A DNA stretch of 17,122 bases from a virus, in UHGV virus genome UHGV-0339891; one strand, written 5' to 3'. The translations under genes were made by a program, and so were the position numbers. Positions 2,360-14,533 of this stretch are shown here, piece by piece. Each line of letters begins with the position of its first letter. Position 1 is the first letter of the stretch. A model generated the notes under the pieces. That model did not search any database. It worked only from the letters and a program-made list of their open reading frames with translations, and was not told where the DNA came from.

Positions 2360-2842
2360 TTATTTGATAAGAAGTGAAGGTTTCCCAACTTTGAGTTGAG
2401 CGCCGGGGATATTTATTCCTGCTTTTAGTTGGTGTTTGATTGCCAGTTTGTCGGCTTTAATTGTCGTTTCAAACTCAACGTATTCAGGAGGAAGGGCGCT
2501 TGAGTCGATTATTTCTACAGTTTCTGACGGTTTGCGGATTGTTACCTGGTGAATACCTGCTCGAATCTTTTTCTTGCCTACCATTTCAAGCGATGACGCT
2601 ATATATGATTTGATGCTGTCAATCTTATTTTGAATTACTGCGGCTCGCTCATTCAGTGACTTTGCCTCTTCCTTGAGGCGTTCAGCATAACCAGATTCAT
2701 TTTTAATGACGGAAAGAAGTTGCTCTATTTTATCGGTAAATTCTCCTTCCATGCCTTCTATTGTGTCAGCAATCATCTCTGGTTCTAAATCTGAATCCAT
2801 CAATTTTGCGTATTCATTGGCAATTTCATACAGTTTGCTCAC
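2360..2842 (-). CDS. Siphovirus Gp157-family protein (about 160 aa)
   Basis: ORF track 2360..2848 (TTG); better start GTG at 2842 with GGAGG 6 nt upstream; size, coiled-coil character and position next to recT fit the Gp157 family (recalled). Confidence 0.5.
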   Translation of the reverse strand: MSKLYEIANEYAKLMDSDLEPEMIADTIEGMEGEFTDKIEQLLSVIKNESGYAERLKEEAKSLNERAAVIQNKIDSIKSYIASSLEMVGKKKIRAGIHQVTIRKPSETVEIIDSSALPPEYVEFETTIKADKLAIKHQLKAGINIPGAQLKVGKPSLLIK

Positions 2843-4389: not shown

Positions 4390-4464
4390 GGGTAACTCCT
4401 TATATTTGATTGCATAACGAAAACGCCTCGAGTGAAGCGTTATTGGTATGCGGTAAAGCCGCGC

Positions 4465-4786: not shown

Positions 4787-4815
4787 TCAAAAAAATCGCC
4801 CTCACACTGGAGGGC
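4787..4815 (-). terminator. Intrinsic terminator inside the pL operon
   Basis: Minus-strand stem GCCCTC/GAGGGC (plus 4798-4803 / 4810-4815) followed by U7 (plus A-run 4789-4795). Confidence 0.5.
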
Positions 4816-4908
4816 AAAGAAGATTTCCAATAATCAGAACAAGTCGGCTCCTGTTTAGTTACGAGCGACATTGCTCACATAGCAGACTCGCAAATCTGCT
4901 ATAGGCGC

Positions 4909-5383: not shown

Positions 5384-5411
5384 TCAAAAATAAAGGCCGA
5401 CTATGCGGCCT
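5384..5411 (-). terminator. Intrinsic terminator inside the pL operon
   Basis: Minus-strand stem AGGCCG/CGGCCT with 6-nt loop followed by UUUAUUUUU, starting 5 nt after the stop of the 5416..5865 gene. Confidence 0.45.
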
Positions 5412-5865: not shown

Positions 5866-5984
5866 ATATCACCTCAAATAAGTGGTTTGCTGCCTAATTT
5901 AATTTTCTGGCGACCAACACAAGTCACACCCATTTCACTGCGTGGCTTGCGGTAGTAAATACGGTTATGTTTACGCTCGACTTC

Positions 5985-6173
5985 TTATGCCTTCTTGCAG
6001 CGAAGGCTTCCGAGTGATGCTGCTTTATCTGCTCTGACGCAACCAGAGAGCTTTAGCGCAATTTTTCGCGCCAGTCGCTGCTCTTGCATTGCCTGTTCAC
6101 GTTGAGCCTGTCTGCGTGCTCTGCGGCGGTTTCTGGCATTATCGTCAGCCAGATATGTAATAACTACTGTCAT
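5985..6173 (-). CDS. N: N-like transcription antiterminator, short (62 aa) with an arginine-rich motif
   Basis: ATG with GGAGG 5 nt upstream; N-terminal motif NARNRRRARRQAQREQ; first gene downstream of pL and nutL. Confidence 0.5.
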   Translation of the reverse strand: MTVVITYLADDNARNRRRARRQAQREQAMQEQRLARKIALKLSGCVRADKAASLGSLRCKKA

Positions 6174-6367
6174 GTTGACCTCCGATGATTGACTTTGGTG
6201 ATTGGATGGCCGGTGCTGAATTCCGGCTTACTGGTTAGAGCGCCCGCACTACCAGTGACGCTGTCTTGAGGCGCAGATTGGTTACTGCTTGCCATGAGCG
6301 CTGTTTATACATTGGTCGAGCATCAGCCTGCTCATTCATCCAATCCCAAAGCCAACTACTCTTTGGT

Positions 6368-6408
6368 TCCCGCATTTCGGCGGGACAATCCCATCAATGT
6401 TAAAGAGC
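6368..6408 (-). promoter_or_regulatory. nutL (boxA GGCTCTTTAA plus boxB hairpin)
   Basis: Minus-strand GGCTCTTTAA (plus 6400-6408), 13-nt spacer, then hairpin CCCGC-CGAAAT-GCGGG (plus 6368-6386); the same boxB occurs at nutR. Confidence 0.6.
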
Positions 6409-6454
6409 CTGCCAATCTGTTCCGTTTGGCTACCAGCGTCCTGCTGATGGCTTA

Positions 6455-6540
6455 AAGATAACTTAGGTTATAGGTGTGGTCAATAACATAATTTATATTT
6501 TGTGGTAAATAAGTTATAAGTGATGGATAACAAAGGTATT
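6455..6540 (-). promoter_or_regulatory. pL promoter with OL operator sites
   Basis: Minus strand: -35 TTGACC (plus 6478-6483), 17-bp spacer, -10 TATCTT (plus 6455-6460); operators ATAACTTAGGTTAT 6458-6471, ATAACATAATTTAT 6483-6496, and weaker ATAACAAAGGTATT 6527-6540. Confidence 0.55.
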
Positions 6541-6660
6541 TTATTTTTGTAAATGTTGCTGATTGATTGGTGTTTGAGGGCTTGCGTGCGGGGTGAAGGT
6601 GTTACCTTTGGCTTGATGCTTGTCTATGATGATGATGGGTGATTGGGTGGTGAACGGCAG

Positions 6661-6695
6661 GAAAAGAAAACCCGGCGCTGAGGCCGGGTGTTTTT
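6661..6695. terminator. Bidirectional intrinsic terminator ending the cI operon
   Basis: Stem CCCGGC/GCCGGG (6671-6676 / 6683-6688) flanked by TGTTTTT on plus and TTTTCTTTTC on minus. Confidence 0.55.
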
Positions 6696-6990
6696 AGTCT
6701 TTTCTTTTGCTTAGCATTTCGTCGATTTCTAAGTCAATACGATATTGATCTATTGCTTTTCTCTCGTTTGGGGTTGGTATTTTATACTGTTCAATTAGAT
6801 CTGTTGTGTATTTTATTTCATCTAATGTGATTTTTATATCAGATAGAATCTCTTTTATATCAATTAGATGCTCTTCTTCTTTTGCGCGATTAGAGCTATG
6901 TTCAATCATTTGAGATAGCTTTTTGCTAATGCTTAGCAAAACAAAAAGAATGATGACCAAAACAACAACAAAAACTATCAGAAATTCCAT
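6694..6990 (-). CDS. Small membrane-anchored coiled-coil protein (98 aa), a moron in the rexAB position downstream of cI
   Basis: ORF track; ATG with GGAGG 4 nt upstream; N-terminal TM helix EFLIVFVVVLVIILFVLLSI then a charged helical domain; AT-rich; terminator 6 nt after the stop. Confidence 0.55.
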   Translation of the reverse strand: MEFLIVFVVVLVIILFVLLSISKKLSQMIEHSSNRAKEEEHLIDIKEILSDIKITLDEIKYTTDLIEQYKIPTPNERKAIDQYRIDLEIDEMLSKRKD

Positions 6991-7030
6991 TATCCCTCCG
7001 CACTTCCGTAAGTCTTCTTCTGATTATCGG

Positions 7031-7738
7031 TTACCAACTATGAGACGACCAGAATACTCTGCCAATAATCCTTACGGTTTTATGAAATTCATCTCTATCC
7101 ATTACTTCATCCGGGTACTCTTCGCGATTTATTGATCTGATTATCACCGATGTAGGGGTGGCGATTAATGTTTTTACTCGTAACAAATCAGACTGGCAAA
7201 TAGCGTAGGTTTTACCATCTCTGATTGTGGTATCTTGCGTGTTAACACCAACAACATCGCCATCGTGAAGCGTTGGTTCCATGCTTTGCCCTACAACCCT
7301 AACTAGCTTGGCTGATCTTTCAGATACTCCCATCTTTTTCAGATAGTGCTTTCTGAAAACCAAAGAGAACTCCGATGATTCCTCTAGCTCGCAGCTACCG
7401 CTTCCAGCTGAAAGCGAAACGTTAAGAAGAGGCAACGCAACAAACTCGTCATCGTTTCTTTTAATGTCTTCCCATACCACAGCTTTTAAAGATGACTCAC
7501 GGACATTGGATGGTTCTTCATGTGCACCATCCCTCATTTCACCAATACCAGAACTAAGCCATTCAGGACGCACTTTTAAAGCATTGGCTAATTCAACCAT
7601 CTTGCGAGATCCGTTTGTTTTACCGGACGACATCTTCTGTATGGCTGGCTGAGATATTCCAACCATGTCAGCAAGCTGTGATTGTGATACCCCTGCTGAG
7701 CTCATGGCTGCATTTAGTCTTTCTGCGAATGTTTTCAT
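7031..7738 (-). CDS. cI: cI-type prophage repressor (HTH plus LexA-like S24 peptidase domain)
   Basis: ORF track 7031..7768 (TTG); ATG at 7738 (MKTFAERL); HTH segment QSQLADMVGISQPAIQKM; Ala-Gly site in LSAGSG; Ser in GQSMEP and Lys in LLRVKTL. Confidence 0.8.
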   Translation of the reverse strand: MKTFAERLNAAMSSAGVSQSQLADMVGISQPAIQKMSSGKTNGSRKMVELANALKVRPEWLSSGIGEMRDGAHEEPSNVRESSLKAVVWEDIKRNDDEFVALPLLNVSLSAGSGSCELEESSEFSLVFRKHYLKKMGVSERSAKLVRVVGQSMEPTLHDGDVVGVNTQDTTIRDGKTYAICQSDLLRVKTLIATPTSVIIRSINREEYPDEVMDRDEFHKTVRIIGRVFWSSHSW

Positions 7739-7745
7739 ACCCACA

Positions 7746-7816
7746 AATCTATAACTACGGTTATCCAAAGTAAAATAACAAAGGTTATTGCTATTTTTTA
7801 TAACTTGAGTTATCTT
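7746..7816. promoter_or_regulatory. OR region: three operators with divergent pRM and pR
   Basis: Operators ATAACTACGGTTAT 7751-7764, ATAACAAAGGTTAT 7775-7788, ATAACTTGAGTTAT 7800-7813; pR -35 TTGCTA 7788-7793, 17 bp, -10 TATCTT 7811-7816; pRM (minus) -35 TTTACT 7769-7774, 17 bp, -10 TAGATT 7746-7751, giving a near-leaderless cI. Confidence 0.6.
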
Positions 7817-7849
7817 TGGTTATAAGTAATGACCACAAGAGGTATGCTC

Positions 7850-8074
7850 ATGAATTTAGTAATTCAACGAGCCTTGAAAATTGTCGGTAGCCAAAAGCGT
7901 CTTGCCGACAAGTGTGGTGTAACGCAGCCAGCAGTACACAAATGGCTGAAAGGCGGGTTGGTCTCTCCAGAGAAAGTTACCGCCATCGTTAACGCCACTG
8001 GAGGGCAGATCAAGGCTTACGAAATTCGCCCCGATTTGCCACACCTGTTTCCAAAACCGAATCAGGCAGCATAA
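7850..8074 (+). CDS. cro: Cro-like repressor (74 aa from MNLVIQ)
   Basis: ORF track 7829..8074; preferred ATG 7850 with AAGAGG 7 nt upstream; HTH-like segment QKRLADKCGVTQPAVHKW; first gene right of OR. Confidence 0.65.
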   Translation: MNLVIQRALKIVGSQKRLADKCGVTQPAVHKWLKGGLVSPEKVTAIVNATGGQIKAYEIRPDLPHLFPKPNQAA

Positions 8075-8081
8075 GTAACAC

Positions 8082-8126
8082 CGCTCTTTAACAGTCATGG
8101 TCCTCATTCCCGCCGAAATGCGGGAA
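8082..8126 (+). promoter_or_regulatory. nutR (boxA CGCTCTTTAA plus boxB hairpin)
   Basis: CGCTCTTTAA 8082-8091, 15-nt spacer, hairpin TTCCCGC-CGAAAT-GCGGGAA 8107-8126, identical to the nutL boxB. Confidence 0.6.
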
Positions 8127-8132
8127 TACAAC

Positions 8133-8183: not shown

Positions 8184-8462
8184 ATGCAACTTACAAGTAC
8201 TCGCAAGAAAGCGAATGCAATTACAAGCAACATCCTGAATCGAATTGCTGTACGTGGTCAGCGAAAGGTTGCCGACGCGTTAGGGATTAATGAATCGCAA
8301 ATTTCGCGATGGAAAGATAGCTTCATCCCAAAAATGGGAATGCTTCTGGCTGTTCTTGAATGGGGTGTTGAAGACGAGGAGTTGGCGGAACTGGCTAAGC
8401 AAGTAGCCAGAATGCTGACAAAAGAAAAAGCCCCGAAGAACGGCGAATTCTTCGAGGCCTGA
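8184..8462 (+). CDS. cII: cII-like transcriptional activator (92 aa)
   Basis: ATG 8184 with AAGGAAA upstream; SQISRWKDSFIPKMGMLLAVLEWGV matches lambda CII SQISRWKRDWIPKFSMLLAVLEWGV (recalled). Confidence 0.75.
   Translation: MQLTSTRKKANAITSNILNRIAVRGQRKVADALGINESQISRWKDSFIPKMGMLLAVLEWGVEDEELAELAKQVARMLTKEKAPKNGEFFEA
8421..8458 (-). terminator. Minus-strand intrinsic terminator inside the 3' end of cII (OOP-like antisense RNA terminator)
   Basis: Minus-strand hairpin CCUCGAAGAA-UUCGCCG-UUCUUCGGGG followed by CUUUUUCUUUU; no T-run on the plus strand. Confidence 0.45.
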
Positions 8463-8644: not shown

Positions 8645-9557
8645 ATGGGCGTCGTTAAGTTAGCTGATTACAGGCATAACCCTGTACAACATCAGGAGGC
8701 ATCCAGTATGGGGTATGTCTCTATACACCGCCAGTTTATGGACAGCAGTCTCTATAAGGACTCTCAGGCAGTACATCTTTGGCTTCACTTAATCCTCAAG
8801 GCTAATCACGAATCTACTGTCGTCAATACGGATATCGGTCCGATAACTGTTGATCGCGGTCAGATGATAACTGGACGCCCGTCGCTGGTCAGAGAAACAT
8901 TCATCCCCGACAACAAAGTTCGGAGCTTATTACGGACTTTTGAGTCGAAGGGGATGCTTAATATTTGCTCGATGGGGAAGAAATTTAGCCTGTTTACAAT
9001 CGTTAAATATGACGATTTTCAGGCAAAAAATTGTCCAACGGTTGTCCAACGGTTGTCCAACGGTTGTCCAACGGTTGTCCAACGCAAACACCAGTAATGG
9101 CGCGGCTCTCAGCGGAGATTGTCCAACGGTTGTCCAACGGTTGTCCATAAACAATAATATAAATAATATCTCTAATACTGACGTATTAGAGAGTGCCACA
9201 GCAGACAAAAAGTCTGACAAGAAAAAACCTTCCGTCAGCTGTCAGGATGTTGTCGATGCTTACCACGAAATCCTTCCTGAAGCGCCAAGAATCCGCGCAC
9301 TGAATGACAAGCGTAAAAACCAGATCCGAACGTTCTGGCGCAAAGCCGGAGTGATAACCCGCCAGCTTGACGGGCATGGGTTCACGATGCAGGACTGGAG
9401 AAATTATTTGAGCTACGTAGGCGAAAATTGCCGATGGATGTTCGAAGAACGCCCAAACCATCAACGCGGAACCGTCTGGCACAAAAAGGGATTTGACTTC
9501 CTGCTTAACGACAATACCTACCTGAAAGTTCGTGAGGGTGAACACGATGACCGATAA
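8645..9557 (+). pseudogene. O-like replication initiator, reading frame split inside its iteron array
   Basis: N-terminal frame 8645..9097 (alternative start 8707) and C-terminal frame 8940..9557 are offset by +1 and overlap across the 11-bp repeats; C-terminal stop overlaps the helicase start. Confidence 0.55.
9031..9150. repeat. Origin of replication: TTGTCCAACGG iterons followed by an AT-rich tract
   Basis: Five tandem 11-bp copies at 9031-9085, a 33-bp spacer, about three further copies at 9119-9150, then an AT-rich tract at about 9151-9180; embedded in the O-like gene as ori is in lambda O. Confidence 0.7.
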
Positions 9558-11011: not shown

Positions 11012-11044
11012 AGGCCTGCTGGTAATCGCAGGCCTTTTTATTTG
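11012..11044 (+). terminator. Intrinsic terminator after the helicase gene (tR2-like position)
   Basis: Stem AGGCCTGC/GCAGGCCT with 8-nt loop followed by TTTTTATTT. Confidence 0.5.
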
Positions 11045-13771: not shown

Positions 13772-13956
13772 ACGCCACAATTCAAACGATACCAGAGCTT
13801 CTTATCCAGACACGAGGCAATCAGACCGAAGTGGCGAGGATGCTTTCCTGCGCAAGAGGAACAGTGCTCAAGTACAACCGAGACAGCAAAGGCGAGCGTC
13901 ATGTAATAGTTAACGGCGTCCTGATGGTCAAACAGGGCAAGAGGGGAAGACGATGA
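13768..13956 (+). CDS. ninH: NinH-like protein
   Basis: ORF track; TIPELLIQTRGNQTEVARMLSCARGTV resembles lambda NinH (recalled). Confidence 0.55.
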   Translation: MNATIQTIPELLIQTRGNQTEVARMLSCARGTVLKYNRDSKGERHVIVNGVLMVKQGKRGRR

Positions 13957-14471
13957 GCATAAGAGAACTAAATCTCACCAAAGAGCAGCACGAGTGGCTG
14001 AATGGCTGGCTTGAACTGTGGGGCGCATGGGTTTATTCAGGTCGTCTGGAAAAGCGCATGAGCAGCGTAATAGCGAAGTTCATGGAGAGCGTAGAGCCGG
14101 GAAGAGTTATGACAAGGCCAATGTGCAATGATGATGATGGAATGTTGATTTCTCAGGTCGTCGATTCCGTCATGTACATTGACAAAAAAGCCTTTGGGAT
14201 CCTCCTCAGCTACTACGCTCATGGTTCATCTAAGCGAGCAATTGCATCCTACTATCACGCGACTGCAAAGCCACGCAAGATGTGTGGACGTGGTGGCGAG
14301 GGATGGAGAAAACCTTCACTGGCAACCTGTAGAAACGAAATTGACGACATCCTGAAAGCGTCGTTATTTGTTTTGTACCAACCAATGCAAAATGCTTTCA
14401 AAATGCGTAAACGTGTTGAGAAAGTTAAGCATGTTGCTGTTAAAAGCCTTGACATGCAATTAGCCATTTAG
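13953..14471 (+). CDS. Q: Q-like late-gene antiterminator (phage 21/82-type Q family)
   Basis: ORF track; last gene before pR' and the lysis cassette; LELWGAWVYSG and CNDDDGMLISQVVD motifs resemble 21-type Q (recalled). Confidence 0.65.
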   Translation: MSIRELNLTKEQHEWLNGWLELWGAWVYSGRLEKRMSSVIAKFMESVEPGRVMTRPMCNDDDGMLISQVVDSVMYIDKKAFGILLSYYAHGSSKRAIASYYHATAKPRKMCGRGGEGWRKPSLATCRNEIDDILKASLFVLYQPMQNAFKMRKRVEKVKHVAVKSLDMQLAI

Positions 14472-14478
14472 CCATAAT
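14449..14478 (+). promoter_or_regulatory. pR'-like late promoter
   Basis: -35 TTGACA 14449-14454, 18-bp spacer, -10 CATAAT 14473-14478, inside the 3' end of Q. Confidence 0.5.
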
Positions 14479-14488
14479 TAGCAGGTAA

Positions 14489-14533
14489 GCTGCCGTTAGT
14501 GACTCTTAAGTTGCAACGGTGGCTTTTTTATTT
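14489..14533 (+). terminator. Terminator hairpin just downstream of pR'
   Basis: Stem GCUGCCGUU/AACGGUGGC (two G-U pairs) with 17-nt loop followed by TTTTTTATTT. Confidence 0.4.

Follow-up and report, generated by a model that had tools for sequence, protein, structure and literature searches.

Probable nonsense truncation of the antiterminator gene N in a presumably defective lambdoid prophage of the HK620 N-nut class

Phage lambda N consists of an arginine-rich motif (ARM, residues 1–22), a NusA-binding segment (residues 34–47) and an RNA polymerase-binding region (residues 73–107). The N-nut specificity class of the locus described here is, as read from its annotated nutL and nutR sites, already known from the record of phage HK620 (GenBank AF335538, annotated by Clark et al.). 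Residues 1–62 of HK620 N match the N product of the 17,122-nt viral genome stretch UHGV-0339891, referred to as the window, at 61 of 62 positions, the exception being Leu57 to Ile; boxA and boxB of nutL and nutR are the same, as is the order pL-nutL-N and cro-nutR-cII. The two genes part after residue 64, where HK620 N acquires a P22/H-19B-type C-terminus (…LPNVAIYAAGYRKSKQLTAR; 90 aa), whereas that of the window gene is of the phage 21/lambda type and untranslated. Phages 611R6 (vB_EcoP-611R6), Gally and IME10 (Lederbergvirus) share 98% nucleotide identity with the window over nutL, leader and N, and have the same ARM, boxB, 99-codon frame and C-terminus. In contrast to the window, codon 63 is GAA (Glu) in these phages, residues 69 and 91 are Gln and Met, and N is intact, with an annotated length of 99 aa (300-nt gene); over residues 1–62, Gally N differs from the N of the window at one residue. 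The features of the locus are compiled in Table 1.

Table 1. Positions of the N gene, nut sites, regulatory elements and neighbouring genes in the window.
Feature	Position	Strand	Basis
Truncated N ORF, 62 codons + TAA	5985–6173	minus	ORF list, translation
Premature ochre TAA, codon 63	5985–5987	minus	alignment with 611R6, Gally, IME10
Untranslated N remainder, 36 sense codons + TGA	5872–5984	minus	translation
N Shine-Dalgarno GGAGG	6179–6183	minus	read from sequence
N leader RNA, 20-bp long-range helix (6356–6337 with 6208–6188)	6188–6356	minus	RNA fold
nutL: boxA GGCTCTTTAA (6400–6409), 14-nt spacer, boxB TCCCGC-CGAAAT-GCGGGA (6368–6385)	6368–6409	minus	
nutR: boxA CGCTCTTTAA (8082–8091), spacer, boxB ATTCCCGC-CGAAAT-GCGGGAAT (8106–8127)	8082–8127	plus	
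PL promoter candidate, -35 TTGACC, -10 TATCTT	6455–6483	minus	promoter scan, inferred from position
OL operators ATAACnnnnGTTAT, overlapped by candidate PL	6458–6471, 6483–6496		operator pattern
OR operators, three exact ATAACnnnnGTTAT sites	7751–7813		operator pattern
tL1-like intrinsic-terminator-like site, first leftward one past N	5394–5411	minus	consensus match
Additional leftward terminator-like sites	4796–4817, 4422–4441	minus	consensus match
tR2-like terminator-like site, directly after helicase gene, between PR and Q	11012–11035	plus	
tIMM-like bidirectional intrinsic-terminator-like hairpin, end of cI transcript	6670–6689	both strands scanned	
cI-type repressor, 235 aa, HTH + S24 peptidase, apparently intact	7031–7738	minus	
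cro-like gene, 74 aa	7850–8074	plus	phrog_35, E 9e-27
cII-like activator gene, first one past nutR	8184–8462	plus	phrog_191, E 1.6e-37
O-like replication initiator gene, two overlapping ORFs (8645–9097, 8940–9557)	8645–9557	plus	

N opens the leftward early operon: it follows pL/OL and nutL, and its start is at position 6173. The ORF at this position encodes 62 aa on the minus strand, and the protein begins MTVVITYLADDNARNRRRARRQAQREQ. Its ARM, NARNRRRARRQAQR (residues 12–25, seven Arg), is invariant or nearly so among 74 N relatives, and the translated part retains both the motif (about residues 13–25) and the central region. Alignment with the DNA of 611R6, Gally and IME10 reveals a single G-to-T difference that turns their GAA into TAA at codon 63. 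Beyond this TAA, the frame continues through 36 sense codons to the normal TGA at 5872–5874, 7 nt ahead of the ATG of the next gene. Translated through the stop, the 99-aa sequence has a phrog_271 ('anti-termination protein N-like') match that spans residues 1–98 (E = 2.6e-36). Classification as N rested on PHROGs and direct alignment, the Pfam match to PF25694 (N_peptide) being weak, with scores of 19.2 bits for the read-through protein and 14.7 bits for the 62-aa form, both below the gathering score of 27.9. By these alignments, an ordinary phage N gene of 99 codons has been cut down to the 62-aa ORF by a nonsense codon at codon 63, and the N of the window is a lambdoid N member by descent, in the form of a pseudogene.

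The initial annotation had rightly placed a 62-aa ORF with an ARM at the N position, and had taken it either for a minimal N or for a truncated gene beside persisting nut sites and downstream terminators. The latter proposal is supported by the GAA-to-TAA change, the in-frame TAA with its conserved tail and the conserved nut sites; the former is refuted by homologues of 99–101 aa, which show the 62-aa form to be a conserved longer protein cut short. A frameshifted continuation downstream of 5985 had also been envisaged, but the continuation lies in the same frame after the nonsense codon. It had been overlooked that the ORF ends at an in-frame TAA with 36 conserved N codons beyond it.

A module homologous to residues 74–107 of lambda N is encoded at 5875–5979, past the in-frame TAA, and the translated 62-aa product is devoid of this C-terminal RNA polymerase-binding region. 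Read-through residues 65–99 are 60% identical to lambda N 74–107 (BLASTP, E = 9e-12), and the read-through C-terminus also matches chain N of PDB 6GOV. The codons after the stop remain an intact conserved frame, the mark of a recent lesion and not of an evolved short gene. Residue 69, six codons past the stop, is His in the window and Gln in all 102 other sequences, a change compatible with relaxed constraint.

The nut sites of both early operons contain boxA SGCTCTTTAA and a boxB with the common core CCCGC-CGAAAT-GCGGG, in agreement with the initial annotation. The 16-mer CCCGCCGAAATGCGGG has just two copies in the 17 kb, the boxB of nutL and that of nutR, each in the orientation of its early transcript (PL or PR), against 0.01 expected by chance; two matches were found in 0 of 200 shuffles. 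Furthermore, nutL is kept in all 69 loci having the window-type ARM and a boxA. Motif type agrees with boxB type in each of three specificity classes (69/69, 13/13 and 12/12 loci), which have the central/C-terminal N segment in common. As a by-product, this comparison provides a natural covariation table that relates three ARM types to three boxB hairpins on a shared N backbone.

In exclusion factors of the HK022 Nun type, the motif targets the boxB of another phage, the C-terminus arrests RNA polymerase, and the phage has no nut sites of its own. This reading was rejected for the window, which has its own cognate nut sites, motif-boxB covariation as in a true N and an N-type tail matching lambda N 74–107. 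Only one DNA match (90.7% identity, C-terminal part) falls on a record that annotates Nun beside N, that of mEp235.

The long-range helix of the N leader stops 4 nt upstream of the N Shine-Dalgarno sequence. The RNA fold of positions 6160–6448 (minus strand) has an energy of −103.2 kcal/mol (z = −3.8), and 0 of 200 shuffles were equally stable. By analogy with lambda, we infer only that the helix may function as an RNase III site. Two small ORFs in the leader (6170–6295 and 6235–6375) were treated as presumably non-coding, because the region forms this strong long-range helix; one of the two is annotated 'proline-rich cell wall protein' in 611R6. Operator repeats ATAACnnnnGTTAT flank the cI/cro region, with six matches in the window versus 0.39 expected. 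The tR2-like site consists of an 8-bp stem with six GC pairs, followed by TTTTATTT (terminator scan), and tIMM is annotated in HK620 at the position equivalent to that of the hairpin at the end of the cI transcript.

The cI-type repressor matches phrog_4 / phrog_6201 (E = 1.6e-52). The two ORFs of the O-like gene match positions 1–136 and 114–292 of phrog_345, and, aligned with Sf6 gene 43, the window has a 22-nt insertion, an expansion of the iteron array that shifts the frame. The array, at 9031–9084, has five copies of an 11-nt unit, against three in Sf6 (TRF), and among the E. coli matches listed for a 136-nt query of this region, the best cover 114 nt. On the basis of the alignment, the O-like frameshift is, after the nonsense codon in N, the second lesion that inactivates a gene of this prophage. 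The remaining genes examined in the window have full-length profile matches; this speaks against decay, in that the prophage is not extensively decayed. The best matches of the whole window are mosaics 95–97% identical to it, with coverage never above 72% for any one complete E. coli genome or phage record.

We estimate a probability of roughly 85% that N is nonsense-truncated in a defective lambdoid (P22/HK620-like) E. coli prophage of the HK620-type N-nut class, and a decaying prophage is the most likely picture. In the intact system, the ARM would bind boxB UCCCGC-CGAAAU-GCGGGA in the nutL and nutR transcripts, boxA would be bound by NusB and NusE (S10), and the C-terminal region, related to those of lambda and phage 21, would keep RNA polymerase termination-resistant. 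Conversion of Glu63 (GAA) into an ochre codon leaves N(1–62), with the RNA-binding motif and the central region and devoid of the RNA polymerase-binding module. N without its C-terminal domain (CTD) fails at nut-distant and intrinsic terminators (PMC3526286), and N(1–62) is not expected to support processive antitermination through the sites at 5394–5411, 4796–4817 and 11012–11035. If N(1–62) does not antiterminate, delayed-early and late gene expression would fail. The truncation of N together with the frameshifted O would render the prophage defective, with immunity still conferred by the intact cI.

Among the 74 collected N genes with this ARM, 72 encode 98–101 aa, and the remaining two, the window and one unrelated contig (L005; Logan SRR12212784), have the same TAA. 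The 90%-identity cluster that holds the 62-aa sequence has 454 members, and those listed are almost all of 99–101 aa. An exact look-up of the 62-aa protein returned 17 contigs; in nine of the ten shown, N runs off the contig end, seven of them going on with G or GA, as in the GAA allele, and two stopping exactly after GCA, so that among these ten a true TAA occurs only in L005. Codons 62–64 are, from the alignments, a recombination junction between N modules, which explains why many '62-aa N' entries in databases are contig-end fragments. A 30-mer megablast against 5,426 complete E. coli genomes gave no hit for the TAA allele, and exact-pattern scans gave none in GTDB species representatives, IMG/VR and JGI metagenomes, the first such pattern being slightly too specific, so that tails of the L005 type would escape it. 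With the GAA allele as a control, hits came from at least 200 of the complete E. coli genomes and from 97 viral contigs. A common lineage variant was therefore rejected, the TAA being absent from the collections scanned while the GAA control was recovered.

This rarity is also what a sequencing or assembly artefact would produce, in which case the real codon 63 would be GAA, N would be 99 aa long, and the 22-nt iteron expansion would be mis-assembled. The N gene carries three G-to-T changes within 90 nt relative to its closest relatives, one of them at a position invariant in 102 other sequences, a pattern also typical of oxidative-damage artefacts, and 11-nt tandem repeats are prone to assembly error. 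However, L005, which has the identical TAA, is an independent assembly that differs in its immunity region, leader and C-terminal variant. In addition, one of the three changes, Met91 to Ile, occurs naturally in phage 21 as well, and the rest of the window, with its other genes full length, does not look error-ridden. We therefore regard an artefact as unlikely. The occurrence of TAA in the differently mosaic L005 could hint at selection or at spread of the allele, as opposed to random decay; the two TAA alleles have no other rare variant in common, and may have arisen independently or spread by recombination.

A partly functional fragment is also unlikely. N(1–62) would in that case bind boxB and probably NusA, and would either block Rho loading locally, immediately past nutL and nutR, or compete with full-length N. 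Deletion of the CTD leaves lambda and H-19B N able to block Rho at the nut-proximal tR1: read-through at nutR-tR1 was close to wild type both in vivo and in vitro, with failure at a second, distal terminator (PMC3526286). For this reason N(1–62) is perhaps not wholly inert; moreover, it contains the whole module common to HK620 N. Local activity would allow some cII/O/P-proximal transcription and no processive antitermination, whereas a competitor would act against the N made by other phages of this nut class, whether co-resident or superinfecting. Against both, similarity to lambda N residues 34–47 was not detected, which makes NusA binding by the fragment putative; with PL repressed in the lysogen, synthesis of the fragment would have to await induction; and an allele this rare speaks against selection. 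An extended version, in which N(1–62) is a stable exchangeable module ending at the junction near codon 63, its allele retained or arisen twice and taming the prophage or excluding relatives, after induction or superinfection, through boxB and NusA binding with local Rho protection or competition against the intact N of HK620-class phages, is very unlikely.

A selected 62-aa 'minimal N' that antiterminates without a CTD is extremely improbable, one reason being that N deprived of its CTD does not overcome distal or intrinsic terminators (PMC3526286). The retained ARM and central region, the intact nut sites, the two mosaic contexts of the TAA and the position of codon 63 at a natural module junction, where HK620 N changes its C-terminus, would suit such a protein, but its length is at odds with the 98–101 aa of nearly all genes with the motif, the frame past the stop is intact and conserved up to the normal stop, and every natural variant, HK620 included, has some C-terminal module. 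Programmed read-through or suppression of the stop, restoring full-length N, can be given scarcely any credence: the codons past the TAA form an open, conserved frame, but relatives have a sense codon at codon 63 and no conserved stop, UAA is of all stop codons the one least prone to leakage in E. coli, a tRNA search of the window found no suppressor tRNA gene, and an Rfam search gave no match above the gathering score and hence no known recoding RNA element.

With nonsense truncation as the preferred reading, the 62-aa ORF should be labelled an N pseudogene (codon 63 ochre) and not a new short antiterminator, and a note that both N and O are probably defective should go with the prophage; no new question on antitermination is raised.

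A comparison with phage 21 shows that its N is almost identical over residues 33–99, including the C-terminal RIYY.KPRSEMGVTCVGRQKIKLGSKPLI, and that its boxA, GGCTCTTTAA, is the same. By contrast, phage 21 has a different motif (GTAKSRYKARRAEL) and boxB (UCUCAAC-CUAACC-GUUGAGA), and its N is full length. Lambda N (PDB 6GOV) resembles that of the window in gene position, arginine-rich N-terminus and the presence of boxA/boxB nut sites in both early operons; 60% identity is confined to the C-terminal 35 residues, which are untranslated here, with no detectable similarity elsewhere. The boxB loops differ as well, the window having a six-base CGAAAU loop on a G+C-rich stem and lambda a GAAAA pentaloop. 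A functional parallel is found in laboratory N nonsense mutants of lambda such as Nam7 and Nam53 and in CTD-deletion N constructs (PMC3526286), in which the RNA polymerase-binding C-terminus is likewise removed while the nut sites are intact; processive antitermination is expected to be lost, possibly with some nut-proximal anti-Rho activity left. Unlike these laboratory mutants, the allele of the window would be a natural ochre in a prophage.

The window is the early-control region of a lambdoid prophage, and its N gene is interrupted by an in-frame stop at codon 63. The minus-strand translation from the ATG at 6173 to 5872 reads MTVV…SLRCKKA * EVERKHNRIYYRKPRSEMGVTCVGRQKIKLGSKPLI *, with asterisks for the two stops. 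The TAA (5985–5987) is followed in frame by 36 sense codons and a second stop, TGA (5872–5874), which sits 7 nt ahead of the ATG of the next gene. The closest phages, vB_EcoP-611R6, Gally and IME10, are 98% identical to the window over 555 nt covering nutL, the leader and N, and a 300-nt N gene is annotated at the same place in two of the three. Their codon 63 is GAA (Glu), differing from the TAA only by G versus T in the alignment, and their N proteins, of 99 aa, are 96% identical to the read-through translation of the window. Phage 21 N is nearly identical to this translation over residues 33–99. Over residues 1–98, the read-through sequence is a match to PHROG 271, 'anti-termination protein N-like' (E = 2.6e-36), and a match to Pfam PF25694 falls below the gathering score. 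The initial annotation had proposed either a minimal N or a truncated gene with persisting nut sites. The in-frame TAA, the conserved N codons beyond it and the GAA of relatives with a 99-aa N refute the former; the stop, the intact boxA and boxB and the downstream terminator-like sites support the latter. The lesion is an in-frame ochre mutation, and not the frameshift that had also been considered.

Coordinates of features in the window
Feature	Position	Strand	Detail
Leftward operon	left part of window		RecT, Gam-like protein, superinfection-exclusion family protein, small genes
Intrinsic-terminator-like sites, leftward	5394-5411, 4796-4817, 4422-4441		downstream of N
N-position ORF	5985-6173	-	62 aa
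Codon 62-64 junction	5985-5990	-	
nutL, then pL/OL			right of N-position ORF in left-to-right order
boxA of nutL	6400-6409	-	GGCTCTTTAA
Bidirectional terminator	6670-6689		
98-aa ORF	6694-6990	-	no function assigned
cI-type repressor	7031-7738	-	
Operators	7751-7813		three exact copies of ATAACnnnnGTTAT
cro	7850-8074		nutR next, then cII
boxA of nutR	8082-8091	+	CGCTCTTTAA
cII	8184-8462		
Rightward genes	right part of window		in order: O-like initiator, DnaB-like helicase, nin-region genes, Q, lysis genes
Iteron array	9031-9084 and 9119-9147		within O-like gene
Intrinsic-terminator-like site, rightward	11012-11035		between helicase gene and Q
Q	13953-14471		
Lysis genes	after Q		holin, endolysin, Rz

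Residues 65–99 of the read-through translation are 60% identical to residues 74–107 of lambda N (E = 9e-12), and they match chain N of PDB 6GOV, the solved structure of the lambda N antitermination complex. Lambda N 74–107 is established as the C-terminal, RNA-polymerase-binding domain (restated in PMC3526286), and since its homologue lies beyond codon 63, the stop removes exactly this module. Terminator-like sites lie downstream in both operons, which indicates a phage built to depend on N. Without their C-terminal domain, the N proteins of lambda and H-19B remain able to overcome Rho at tR1, close to nut, but not to pass a second terminator farther away or hairpin terminators (Muteeb et al., PMC3526286). 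By analogy, N(1–62), the product predicted from the ORF, would provide at best local Rho protection and no processive antitermination, so that delayed-early and late expression should fail. No suppressor tRNA or known RNA element was found in the window.

A second lesion affects the O-like initiator gene (8645–9557), which is divided into two ORFs, 8645–9097 (150 aa) and 8940–9557 (205 aa), matching PHROG 345 at positions 1–136 and 114–292, respectively. The 11-nt iteron TTGTCCAACGG is present in five copies, versus three in Sf6 gene 43, and the two extra copies (+22 nt) shift the frame and split the gene. The best E. coli matches listed for a 136-nt query span 114 nt, consistent with the three-copy form. 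All other genes checked in the window are full-length matches to their profiles. Two independent inactivating lesions in essential lytic genes, with the repressor intact, are typical of a prophage that is starting to decay.

In the 3′ third of N (5933–5987, minus strand), the window departs from its closest relatives at three positions, each a coding-strand G-to-T transversion (E63stop, Q69H, M91I). Oxidative damage, as mutation or as artefact, could account for this pattern, and so could relaxed constraint downstream of the stop. Residue 69 is His in the window and Gln in all 102 other sequences; this change, unique among 103, is compatible with relaxed constraint, and fits a run of G-to-T errors equally well. 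The alternative to decay, that the N stop and the O frameshift are both sequence errors, is unlikely. It is highly improbable that N(1–62) persists because it keeps a nut-proximal anti-Rho or dominant-negative activity.

The truncated form is rare. The 90%-identity cluster holding the exact 62-aa sequence has 454 members, and nearly all those listed are 99–101 aa long. The exact sequence occurs in 17 contigs; among the ten listed, the gene runs off the contig end in nine, of which seven go on with G or GA, as in the GAA allele, and two stop exactly after GCA. The only genuine TAA among these ten is that of L005, a fetched locus from Logan (SRR12212784). Searches for the TAA allele had no match among 5,426 complete E. 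coli genomes or in IMG/VR, the JGI metagenomes or GTDB representatives; the GAA allele was found in at least 200 genomes and in 97 viral contigs. N genes with the window-type arginine-rich motif, extracted from the fetched loci (n = 74), encode 99 aa (50), 101 aa (21), 98 aa (1) or 62 aa (2), the last being the window and L005 (SRR12212784_77, 2284–2472), where the GAA-to-TAA change at codon 63 is identical. L005 is an unrelated mosaic prophage contig: its immunity region is of the P22 c2/cro type, its N leader differs from that of the window, and its C-terminus is the 101-aa variant. The nonsense mutation is thus present in two backgrounds, which may reflect independent recurrence or recombinational spread. 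An N of the same class in IMGVR_UViG_2698536480_000001 (~2508–2531, minus strand) has a separate apparent defect at its N-terminus, with the longest ORF (73 aa) beginning at internal Met29 and a cognate boxB upstream.

The first 62 residues of N are shared and followed by one of at least three C-terminal modules: a phage 21/lambda type (99 aa in total), a variant ending …KSIPAYYD (101 aa), and the P22/H-19B type of HK620 (90 aa; L114, the HK620 locus, 2361–2633). This arrangement identifies codons 62–64 as a natural mosaic junction, at which the exchangeable N-terminal module is the RNA-binding motif plus the central region. Many short-read contigs end exactly there, probably because of the junction, and leave databases with spurious '62-aa partial' N entries.

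Between cI and pL, the position of lambda rexAB, the 98-aa ORF has a hydrophobic N-terminus, holds a 21-nt tandem repeat (6832–6875) and is followed by the bidirectional terminator. It matches PHROG 18389 (unknown function) over its full length and is probably a lysogen-expressed moron. Directly after Q (14449–14530, plus strand) lies a near-consensus promoter (TTGACA, 18-nt spacer, CATAAT; 11 of 12 matches), followed by a hairpin and T-run (~14490–14530); together they look like pR′ with a short terminated leader, the Q target.

The N leader (6188–6356, minus strand), between nutL and the N Shine-Dalgarno, contains a 20-bp long-range helix (6356–6337 paired with 6208–6188) reminiscent of the hairpin processed by RNase III in the lambda N leader; the fold of the whole leader has a z-score of -3.8. 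The leader is invariant in the four closest sequences, and N itself carries several synonymous changes. A small leader ORF annotated as 'proline-rich cell wall protein' in one relative is probably spurious.

The antitermination elements described initially are all present: the arginine-rich stretch of the 62-aa ORF (NARNRRRARRQAQR), a boxA at both nut sites, and an identical boxB. The window contains the 16-mer CCCGCCGAAATGCGGG at exactly two places, 6369–6384 (minus) and 8109–8124 (plus), with 0.01 expected by chance and two matches in none of 200 shuffles. Both copies fold into a G+C-rich stem of 6–8 bp with a CGAAAU loop. Comparison of arginine-rich motif types on the shared backbone of the fetched loci shows perfect covariation with boxB type: TCCCGC-CGAAAT-GCGGGA for the window type (69/69 loci), TCTCAAC-CTAAYC-GTTGAGA for the phage 21 type (13/13) and GCGCT-GACAA-AGCGC for the P22 type (12/12). 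The result is a tidy table and not a new principle, and supports the hairpin as the cognate boxB of the window N. Of the first 62 residues of HK620 N (AF335538), 61 are shared with the window ORF, before the switch to a different C-terminus, and the nutL and nutR annotated in that record have boxA and boxB sequences identical to those of the window; the window system is a member of an N–nut class already described.
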